Virus genome (UHGV): UHGV-1616174
From: a virus
Reading direction: 5' to 3' (one strand)
DNA length: 12,393 nt
The notes beneath the pieces were generated by a model. It had not been told where the DNA came from. It saw only the letters and a list, made by a program, of their open reading frames with translations, and did not search any database. Position numbers and translations under genes: made by a program. Positions 10,098-10,929 of this stretch are shown in pieces (position 1 is the stretch's first letter; every line of letters begins with the position of its first letter).

Positions 10098-10929
10098 CCA
10101 GTCTCCCCGAATTACTCATTTCATGCAGCGATGACACGATGTCACTGACTGGCGTAATAACCCCCCGGCGCTGGCTGGTCAGAATATCGGTTTCCGCTCT
10201 GAGTTTATCTCTGGCGGCGTTGATTCTTTCCCGGTCAGCACGAAGTTTTGGTGCTGTTTCCGCCAGAACGTCCAGCGTCAGCAATGAGCGTTCAATTGAC
10301 TCGATACGGGCAATATTCCGGTCAAGGGCCTGTTCTGCTTTGAGTATTTTGTCGTACAGGGCAACACGGGTTTCCACGTCAGCCGCCTCTTTCAGGTCGG
10401 CGAACATTTTTTTCAGTGTTCCTGTTACTGAAAGTGCGCGGGCCCGGGTGAACACCAGTTCATCGAACAGCACCATATCGGACGCATCATCCATGAGGTT
10501 ATCTGCCTCAAGATACTTCGCATATCCACGGTGTCTCACGGCGTGGGTGTTACGGTCGCTAAACCGGGCAACGGGGTGAGGATTACCCGATCTGCTGTTG
10601 CGTTTCGTTTCTGCCGAATTTGCGCAGTTTTTTGCGCATTTTTCATCACTGCCATCATCGCCGTAAGACTCGTCATTACTGGACTCGTCATCAGCTCCAT
10701 GCGCATTTTTTTGTGCGCTTTTTTGAGTGTCAATTTGCGCACTTTTTTGCGCATTTTTCTGCGCACTTTCCTCTGTATTTTTGGGGGAGTTTTTGCGCAG
10801 TTTTATGTACCGACGAGCCGTGCCATAGCAGATATTGTTCTGTCGACACCAGTCCTGAAGTTTTATGCCAGTTCTGGCATGTTCGCGTCGGAATGCCTGC
10901 TCCAGTTTTTTCCAGTCCAGCTTTGCCAT
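10078..10929 (-). CDS. terS: Terminase small subunit (283 aa): N-terminal helix-turn-helix DNA-binding domain, long low-complexity linker, C-terminal coiled coil
   Basis: Complete ORF immediately upstream of and overlapping terL. The N-terminus (MAKLDWKKLEQAFRREHARTGIKLQDWCRQNNICYGTARRYIKL) looks like a winged-HTH packaging DNA-binding domain. The linker holds AQK[N/S] tetrapeptide repeats and an acidic stretch. Unusually long for a small terminase. Confidence 0.7.
   Translation of the reverse strand: MAKLDWKKLEQAFRREHARTGIKLQDWCRQNNICYGTARRYIKLRKNSPKNTEESAQKNAQKSAQIDTQKSAQKNAHGADDESSNDESYGDDGSDEKCAKNCANSAETKRNSRSGNPHPVARFSDRNTHAVRHRGYAKYLEADNLMDDASDMVLFDELVFTRARALSVTGTLKKMFADLKEAADVETRVALYDKILKAEQALDRNIARIESIERSLLTLDVLAETAPKLRADRERINAARDKLRAETDILTSQRRGVITPVSDIVSSLHEMSNSGRLDDIPEE
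10615..10810. repeat. Array of at least 8 copies of TGCGC(A) flanked by T4-7 runs (plus strand), inside terS
   Basis: TGCGCA occurs at 10621, 10633, 10700, 10714, 10736, 10748, 10760 and 10794, with 12 bp spacing between several adjacent copies. On the coding strand this gives GCGCA(A/G)AAAAA(T/G), translated as A-Q-K-N/S repeats. Confidence 0.6.

Follow-up and report, generated by a model that had tools for sequence, protein, structure and literature searches.

A TGCGCA hexamer array inside the small terminase gene of a 933W-type prophage is probably a packaging site built like P1 pac

The virus genome UHGV-1616174 was analysed over a stretch of 12,393 bp (the window), which is the late region of a short-tailed lambdoid prophage of the 933W/VT2-Sakai type. 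The subject here is an array of the palindromic hexamer TGCGCA that lies within terS, the gene for the small terminase subunit (TerS), and that is a candidate recognition site for DNA packaging (pac). In the late operon terS immediately precedes terL, and the two genes overlap by 20 bp. Coordinates of the array are given on the + strand, and the features on which the argument depends are as follows.

10078–10929, minus strand: terS, small terminase subunit, 283 amino acids (aa), from its open reading frame (ORF), its translation and PHROG 370
10801–10929, minus strand: segment of terS coding for the N-terminal three-helix, helix-turn-helix (HTH) domain, aa 1–43 (AlphaFold2 helices 6–20, 24–30 and 35–41, pLDDT 76–90)
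10700–10799: hexamer cluster 1, with TGCGCA starting at 10794, 10760, 10748, 10736 and 10700 and a degenerate TGCGCT at 10714
10639–10699: inter-cluster spacer, 61 bp, coding for the acidic stretch GADDESSNDESYGDDGSDE
10621–10638: hexamer cluster 2, with two TGCGCA (starts 10633 and 10621) and the frame-0 translation K-C-A-K-N-C-A-N
8391–10097, minus strand: terL, large terminase, 568 aa, the presumed nuclease and motor partner (PHROG 2 'terminase large subunit', E 5e-52)

The product of terS is a small terminase of the 933W/VT2-Sakai type. The PHROG 370 'terminase small subunit' profile matches residues 1–283 (E 2.5e-117), the gene has the expected place upstream of terL, and the protein is 78–100% identical to TerS of VT2-Sakai, GER2 and PhiR12_3. 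AlphaFold2 places helices within residues 6–41, a low-confidence region at 45–131 and a long helical hairpin at 143–253; the array-encoded linker is a predicted disordered region. The putative recognition helix of the HTH domain reads ...YGTARRYIK, and the hexamers span nucleotides (nt) 131–309 of terS, after the codons for HTH residues 1–43. The TerS sequence matched no Pfam family and no PDB sequence, and a Foldseek comparison with PDB folds returned generic helical hairpins alone (E > 0.1).

Seven of the ten TGCGCA in the window lie in the array, which holds seven TGCGCA and one TGCGCT within 10621–10799, each copy followed by a T-run of 4–7. With up to one mismatch allowed, TGCGCANTTTT has nine matches in the window, eight of them in the array, while 200 dinucleotide shuffles gave 1.48 ± 1.11 matches and none reached nine. 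Three neighbouring pairs are spaced at exactly 12 bp (10621 to 10633, 10736 to 10748 and 10748 to 10760), the remaining spacings are 14, 22, 34 and 67 bp, and Tandem Repeats Finder (TRF) reports period-12 arrays at 10619–10643 and 10734–10769. A preliminary description of this DNA had reported TGCGC(A) copies flanked by T4–7 runs, several at exactly 12-bp spacing, between the N-terminal HTH domain and the C-terminal coiled coil of a 283-aa TerS; the copy number is beyond the shuffle expectation, the spacings are present and the AlphaFold2 layout agrees, so that this part of the description stands. Cluster 1 is translated as L-R-K (frame 1) and S/N-A-Q/H (frame 2), and its coding strand carries A-tracts. 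Residues 55–77 of TerS read SAQKNAQKSAQIDTQKSAQKNAH, and residues 97–104 read KCAKNCAN. The spacer between the clusters contains a perfect 10-bp direct repeat, GACTCGTCAT, in two copies (10667–10676 and 10682–10691, 15-bp spacing); the GER2 and VT2-Sakai alleles carry a related sequence, (A/C)ATGACG(A/C)G.

At the DNA level, 10078–11250 shares 99.4% identity with Escherichia phage PhiR12_3 and 84–90% with ~270 Shiga toxin (Stx)-converting phages. The array is unique in the 62-kb genome of PhiR12_3, where it accounts for 7 of 32 TGCGCA. Among ~6,200 windows of 200 bp in that genome, 25 contain at least three copies, and all of the top-ranked ones (5–7 copies) are at the array.

All three reading frames of the hexamer occur within terS, as cTG CGC Aaa (L-R-K), xxT GCG CAx (S/N-A-Q or N-A-H) and TGC GCA (C-A). 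The 28-mers at 10617–10644 and 10732–10759 are 96% identical as DNA and are translated in different frames. The same behaviour is seen in 30 usable homologues (38–65% aa identity) from Citrobacter, Brenneria, Serratia, Yersinia, Aeromonas, Xenorhabdus and other hosts. These were retrieved via the conserved C-terminal half of TerS and were thus not selected for the array. Of the 30, 25 have three to seven TGCGCA within terS nt 118–332, with zero to six in 4 kb of flanks. When the protein was kept and synonymous codons were redrawn from the gene's own usage (2000 simulations per gene), 0.2–1.1 hexamers were expected. The observed count was reached in 0 of 2000 runs for 23 of these 25 array-bearing homologues, which have 40–65% aa identity, and in 2 and 8 of 2000 runs for the remaining two. 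The 117 distinct sites are divided among the frames as 84/23/10 and have the extended consensus AAA[C/G]TGCGCAA[A/T]. A single DNA word would explain peptides as unlike as TAQ, VRK, MRN and the odd dipeptide Cys-Ala. This comparison indicates that selection preserves the hexamer as DNA, whichever of the three reading frames it occupies. The description of the array as coding for an AQK(N/S) peptide repeat is therefore correct in that the array is translated as a low-complexity linker, but with three frames in use it is not just a peptide repeat. The accompanying suggestion that the array could expand or contract in frame is borne out by alleles that have gained and lost units, with proteins of 271, 279 and 283 aa and of 268, 272 and 280 aa.

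Curvature was estimated with a wedge-model trajectory using Bolshoy-type parameters, which are approximate and give a rough result. The predicted curvature peaks at 55 degrees at 10629 (cluster 2, the window maximum) and at 53 degrees at 10746 (cluster 1), against a window mean of 15 ± 8 degrees and a 99th percentile of 40. The two top peaks of the window thus fall on the two hexamer clusters, and for this allele the model is consistent with the earlier proposal of bent DNA. The pac DNA of SPP1 is bent. The related proposal that the repeats are phased near the helical repeat is weak, as the 12-bp spacing follows from units of four codons and the family has no common period. Hexamer spacings across the family are 7–16 bp, with 7, 9, 10, 12, 14 and 16 bp dominating, and no family-wide period was found among the 8–15 bp tested (mean resultant length ≤0.57). 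The hexamers of the window itself are in phase at ~11.5 bp (R 0.92), a post hoc value.

The array always starts right after the HTH-coding segment in the homologues compared, and the repeated word changes with the allele of that segment. In VT2-Sakai (…YNTARTRIKMGK), four (C/T)GATCAT at 12 bp, read I-D-H-E/K, stand in place of the array (L001, terS nt 142–183). A Salmonella homologue (L098; …NTARTQIK, in an N-terminus that is otherwise Salmonella-type) has five YGATCA. ARTRIK/ARTQIK helices are thus paired with four to five YGATCA at 12 bp independently in E. coli VT2-Sakai and in Salmonella. Pectobacterium and Brenneria homologues (…SSAKRYITIK) have five TTCGCA, and two further N-domains are accompanied by GTACGAAA repeats (in two frames) or by GGACGG/CCGTCC repeats. 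A protein-level proxy, in which dipeptides were counted among 111 full-length TerS matches, gives the same picture. The 87 proteins with ARR[YH][IL]K have means of 3.6–6.2 A(Q/H) and 0–0.5 D(H/Q) dipeptides, the eight with ART/ARI have means of 0 A(Q/H) and 4–5 D(H/Q), and the seven with AKRYIT have means of 0 A(Q/H) dipeptides and 3 SQ[IK] motifs.

Most Stx2 phages have an allelic array of four to seven GATC-containing hexamers at 12 bp. Some alleles have non-palindromic motifs and carry forward followed by inverted copies: TTCGC five times and GCGAA twice in L069 (nt 162–232), and GGTAC three times and GTACC twice in L100 (nt 129–188). In L099 (terS nt 161–206), one CGTCC is followed by four GGACG. 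The forward and inverted copies in these three sequences hint at a two-armed symmetric complex.

Judged by sequence and arrangement, the closest precedent of the array is P1 pac within pacA. P1 pac is a 161-bp site with seven TGATCA/G repeats that are bound by the pacase, and synonymous recoding cuts P1 packaging ~9-fold (PMC10028697). According to the P1 sequence and annotation, pacA carries four TGATCA at nt 194–233, an integration host factor (IHF) site, the cleavage region at nt 276–285 and three further hexamers at nt 324–352, and the hexamers are read in two frames. The two groups, HEX4 and HEX3, are recognized by PacA/PacB together with IHF/HU. The present array likewise consists of a repeated 6-bp palindrome in two clusters around a spacer, inside the small terminase gene just 3' of the HTH segment (nt 131–309 here, nt 194–352 in P1), and is read in more than one frame. 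The N-domains are also alike (...GTARRYI... here, ...NTARRYL... in P1), and Sakai-type alleles of terS use GATC-containing hexamers, as P1 does. The N-terminal ~58 residues of TerS give a weak match to PacA (BLASTP E 7e-4; hhalign E 5.7e-5, 66% probability), and in this N-terminal part PHROGs 370 and 1711 match each other reciprocally (E 1e-4 to 3e-5). Unlike P1, the hexamer is TGCGCA rather than TGATCA/G with its Dam site (GATC). No GATC occurs in 10615–10810, and P1-style control by Dam methylation would therefore be impossible for the TGCGCA allele. The layout is 6 + 2 with a spacer of 61 bp, compared with 4 + 3 and ~90 bp in P1. TerS has 283 aa and PacA 397, the body of TerS is not detectably related to the C-terminal part of PacA, and the phage is a short-tailed lambdoid with a P22-like portal.

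Other headful phages offer more distant comparisons. The recognition site of the headful packaging series is within the TerS coding sequence in P22 and Sf6, and the pac of P22 is a single asymmetric 22-bp sequence (PMC9611059). In SPP1 the G1P-bound pac (pacL/pacC/pacR) has several TerS contact points flanking the TerL cut (PMC9611059). The SPP1 boxes differ from the array described here in that they are few, are situated largely upstream of gene 1 and at its start and do not have the form of hexamer palindromes, and the proteins are unrelated. A P22-type pac site is ruled out by the palindromic hexamer array and by a TerS that has neither a Pfam match nor a PDB sequence relative and is not related to that of P22. 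The preliminary description had drawn its parallel with P22, Sf6 and SPP1; the position of the candidate site inside terS does agree with P22 and Sf6, whereas the TerS proteins are unrelated to those of the three phages and the better parallel is P1.

Based on these comparisons, the array is probably a pac site built like that of P1, with TGCGCA as its hexamer. The hexamer read in three frames, the resampling result, the linkage to the HTH segment, the switch of motif and the P1-like architecture all favour the idea, already put forward in outline, of a site recognized by TerS. The TGCGCA cluster is most likely bound by the phage's own TerS to start DNA packaging. By analogy with P1, TerS would be made late in infection, and the HTH domains at its N-terminus, presented by an oligomer that the C-terminal helical hairpin holds together, would bind the hexamers of clusters 1 and 2 within terS itself, on intrinsically curved A-tract DNA. 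The nucleoprotein complex would recruit TerL, and the first cut would fall in or near the ~60-bp spacer, with 10639–10699 as the predicted zone because P1 cleavage falls between its two hexamer clusters. Headful packaging would then run in the direction of transcription from terS to terL, toward lower window coordinates. Since the site overlaps the disordered linker of TerS, the constraint on the DNA could be met by the peptide of any frame (SAQK, LRK/VRK or CA). The HTH-coding segment and the site could also move together as one specificity cassette.

Several observations weigh against this interpretation. TerS has weak homology to PacA over just ~58 residues, with the rest of the protein unaligned, and TerL shows no BLASTP similarity to P1 PacB (best E 3.4). 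A scan with the IHF consensus alone (WATCAANNNNTTR, up to one mismatch) found no site in 10580–10850. There is no simple code from helix to hexamer, as the Aeromonas helix NSARRYLK goes with TGCGCA while NTARRYLQ and the P1 helix NTARRYLR go with TGATCA. In addition, 35 of 43 Sakai-type loci keep two TGCGCA in cluster 2 even though their cluster 1 is GATCA, so some other constraint may preserve cluster 2. There are also headful phages whose first cut is made far from the recognition site. Being repeated palindromes, the hexamers form hairpins in the mRNA as well (z = −4.15), and terminator-like elements in the antisense direction. Finally, the literature searched, with incomplete coverage, contains no published pac site, virion ends, cleavage or TerS–DNA binding for 933W/Stx short-tailed phages; pac is not addressed in a paper on Sp5 morphogenesis.

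The ends of database records were considered as physical ends and rejected. AP005154.1, AP004402.1 and NC_004913.3 all end 1238 bp after the start of terS, but this is a numbering convention, because AP005154.1, declared as a circular record, is numbered from an XhoI site. The phi367 record begins at terL merely because it has been rotated to do so.

Of the alternatives to a pac site, the one that survives best, although unlikely, is that TerS or another DNA-binding protein binds the array for a purpose other than initiation. Autoregulation of terS/terL, nucleation of the TerS oligomer or a host-factor site would be examples, and the signal for the pac cut would then lie elsewhere, such as in 10930–11230 or in terL. 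What the comparative evidence shows is selection on the motif and its linkage to the HTH segment, rather than the effect of binding, and the TGCGCA retained in cluster 2 of Sakai-type alleles despite a different cluster 1 would suit such a role. However, P1 has a homologous arrangement that is proven to act as pac and whose recoding lowers packaging (PMC10028697), the array is the dominant TGCGCA cluster of the phage genome, and the 10930–11230 spacer has no comparable repeat.

An element acting at the level of RNA or transcription is rather improbable. Hairpins in the terS mRNA might modulate translation or stability, or antisense terminators might block convergent transcription into the late operon, and selection on RNA would fit the synonymous, frame-independent conservation as well. 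The mRNA of 10610–10810 folds at −57.7 kcal/mol (with the z-score given above), and the + strand at 10621–10789 has six intrinsic-terminator-like elements, each a 6–8-bp hairpin between adjacent hexamers followed by a T-run, compared with 1.2 expected. More than 100 distinct sites, however, agree in the exact sequence TGCGCA rather than in mere complementarity, and some motif classes are non-palindromic. The folding z-scores of homologous arrays are inconsistent (−0.9 to −4.3), and 14 of the 25 homologues that keep the hexamers lack such pairs in the antisense direction; hairpins and antisense terminators were rejected as a conserved function for this reason. The motif also co-varies with a protein helix, and the window has no Rfam match. 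Independently of their conservation, transcription entering the late operon the wrong way might stop at the terminator-like elements of this allele.

Very improbable is a slippage-prone coding repeat in which the AQK linker peptide or its mere length matters and the DNA similarity is a by-product of recent tandem duplication: close alleles do gain and lose units, the linker is predicted to be disordered and one SAQK copy is coded AGC GCA CAA, with the peptide kept and the hexamer degraded, but a pure peptide repeat is discarded because one hexamer gives three different peptides in three frames of one gene and because 5–7 copies are observed where resampling gives 0.2–1.1, even in homologues from Aeromonas, whose arrays cannot be aligned by position. 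The rare Cys-Ala dipeptide, where it recurs, is likewise coded exactly TGC GCA.

The pac interpretation was extended to IMG/VR with the pattern TGCGCA-N3-8-TGCGCA-N3-8-TGCGCA; the counts refer to the 80 matches listed. Fifty-nine of these arrays are inside ORFs that match the TerS profile, always at ORF nt 137–173. About six of the listed matches are 933W-type over the full length, whereas ~46 distinct genes share just the N-terminal 70–80 residues (MAKPDWG…ATARRYIKKP), followed by unrelated TerS bodies such as a Terminase_2-like one (…LTAQQRLFVAEYLKDNNATQAAIRAGYS). The Terminase_2-like body occurs without this N-terminal part and array in Mannheimia, Pseudomonas, Burkholderia and Bacillus phages. 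The listed TerS loci have a mean of 5.9 hexamers against 0.6 expected, which shows linkage and not enrichment, since the set was chosen for having arrays. A corresponding scan for TGATCA triplets is weak as a test because unrelated D-Q/D-H tandem repeats make up most of its matches, with 11–12 of the 80 listed being TerS or PacA-like.

These distributions raise the possibility that packaging specificity resides in a self-contained, portable cassette made up of the HTH-coding segment and the hexamer array. The DNA-binding domain and its own multi-copy site would be encoded in adjacent, partly overlapping DNA, and the site would be kept via any frame. Such a cassette would have been joined to no fewer than four or five unrelated TerS bodies (933W-type, P1 PacA, Terminase_2-like and others), with its hexamers diversified to TGCGCA, TGATCA/YGATCA, TTCGCA and others. 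We consider the case for this extension evenly balanced. Leavitt and colleagues reportedly described in 2013 that DNA-binding domains of TerS and pac specificity have been swapped horizontally among P22-like phages.

The locus is likely to represent a pac recognition array of the P1 type in which the hexamer is new and lacks a Dam site. Demonstrating that TerS binds pac specifically has proved difficult even in P22, Sf6 and SPP1 (PMC9611059). This TerS family makes pac unusually legible, with 5–10 exact copies of a 6-bp word, alleles that switch the word along with the recognition helix, and the HTH segment and array present on different scaffolds. Should the cassette exist, the alleles would supply a naturally occurring set of specificities for the long-standing question of how pac is read by TerS, and the pac site of Shiga toxin phages would be defined. 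The result also provides a predicted start point of packaging for 933W/Sakai-type phages, which are the principal carriers of Shiga toxin genes; this origin bears on the transduction of flanking host DNA, on the design of satellites and phagemids and on the reading of sequence data from induced prophages. Methylation control like that of P1 is conceivable for the Sakai-type GATC class of alleles, given the Dam-type methylase that these phages encode, though not for the TGCGCA class.

The remaining annotated neighbours of the terminase genes are the following.

6247–8391, minus strand: P22-like portal gene
11231–11698, minus strand: Rz

Rz and terS are separated by 300 bp (10930–11230) without an ORF in the late-gene orientation, and within this interval neither a repeat nor a promoter-like site stood out. 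The matching region of VT2-Sakai holds an annotated small ORF (orf48). In IMG/VR, ten TGCGCA occur in a 'SCAASCAAVRAA' array that is antisense to a 271-aa ORF not resembling TerS (L110, 10842–10872; L175, 890–920). At the other end of the window, ~250–980 contains tandem repeats of 9, 18 and 27 bp (CCTGCCGGG and similar), typical of collagen-like Gly-X-Y coding, where Sp5-type phages encode a tail fibre.

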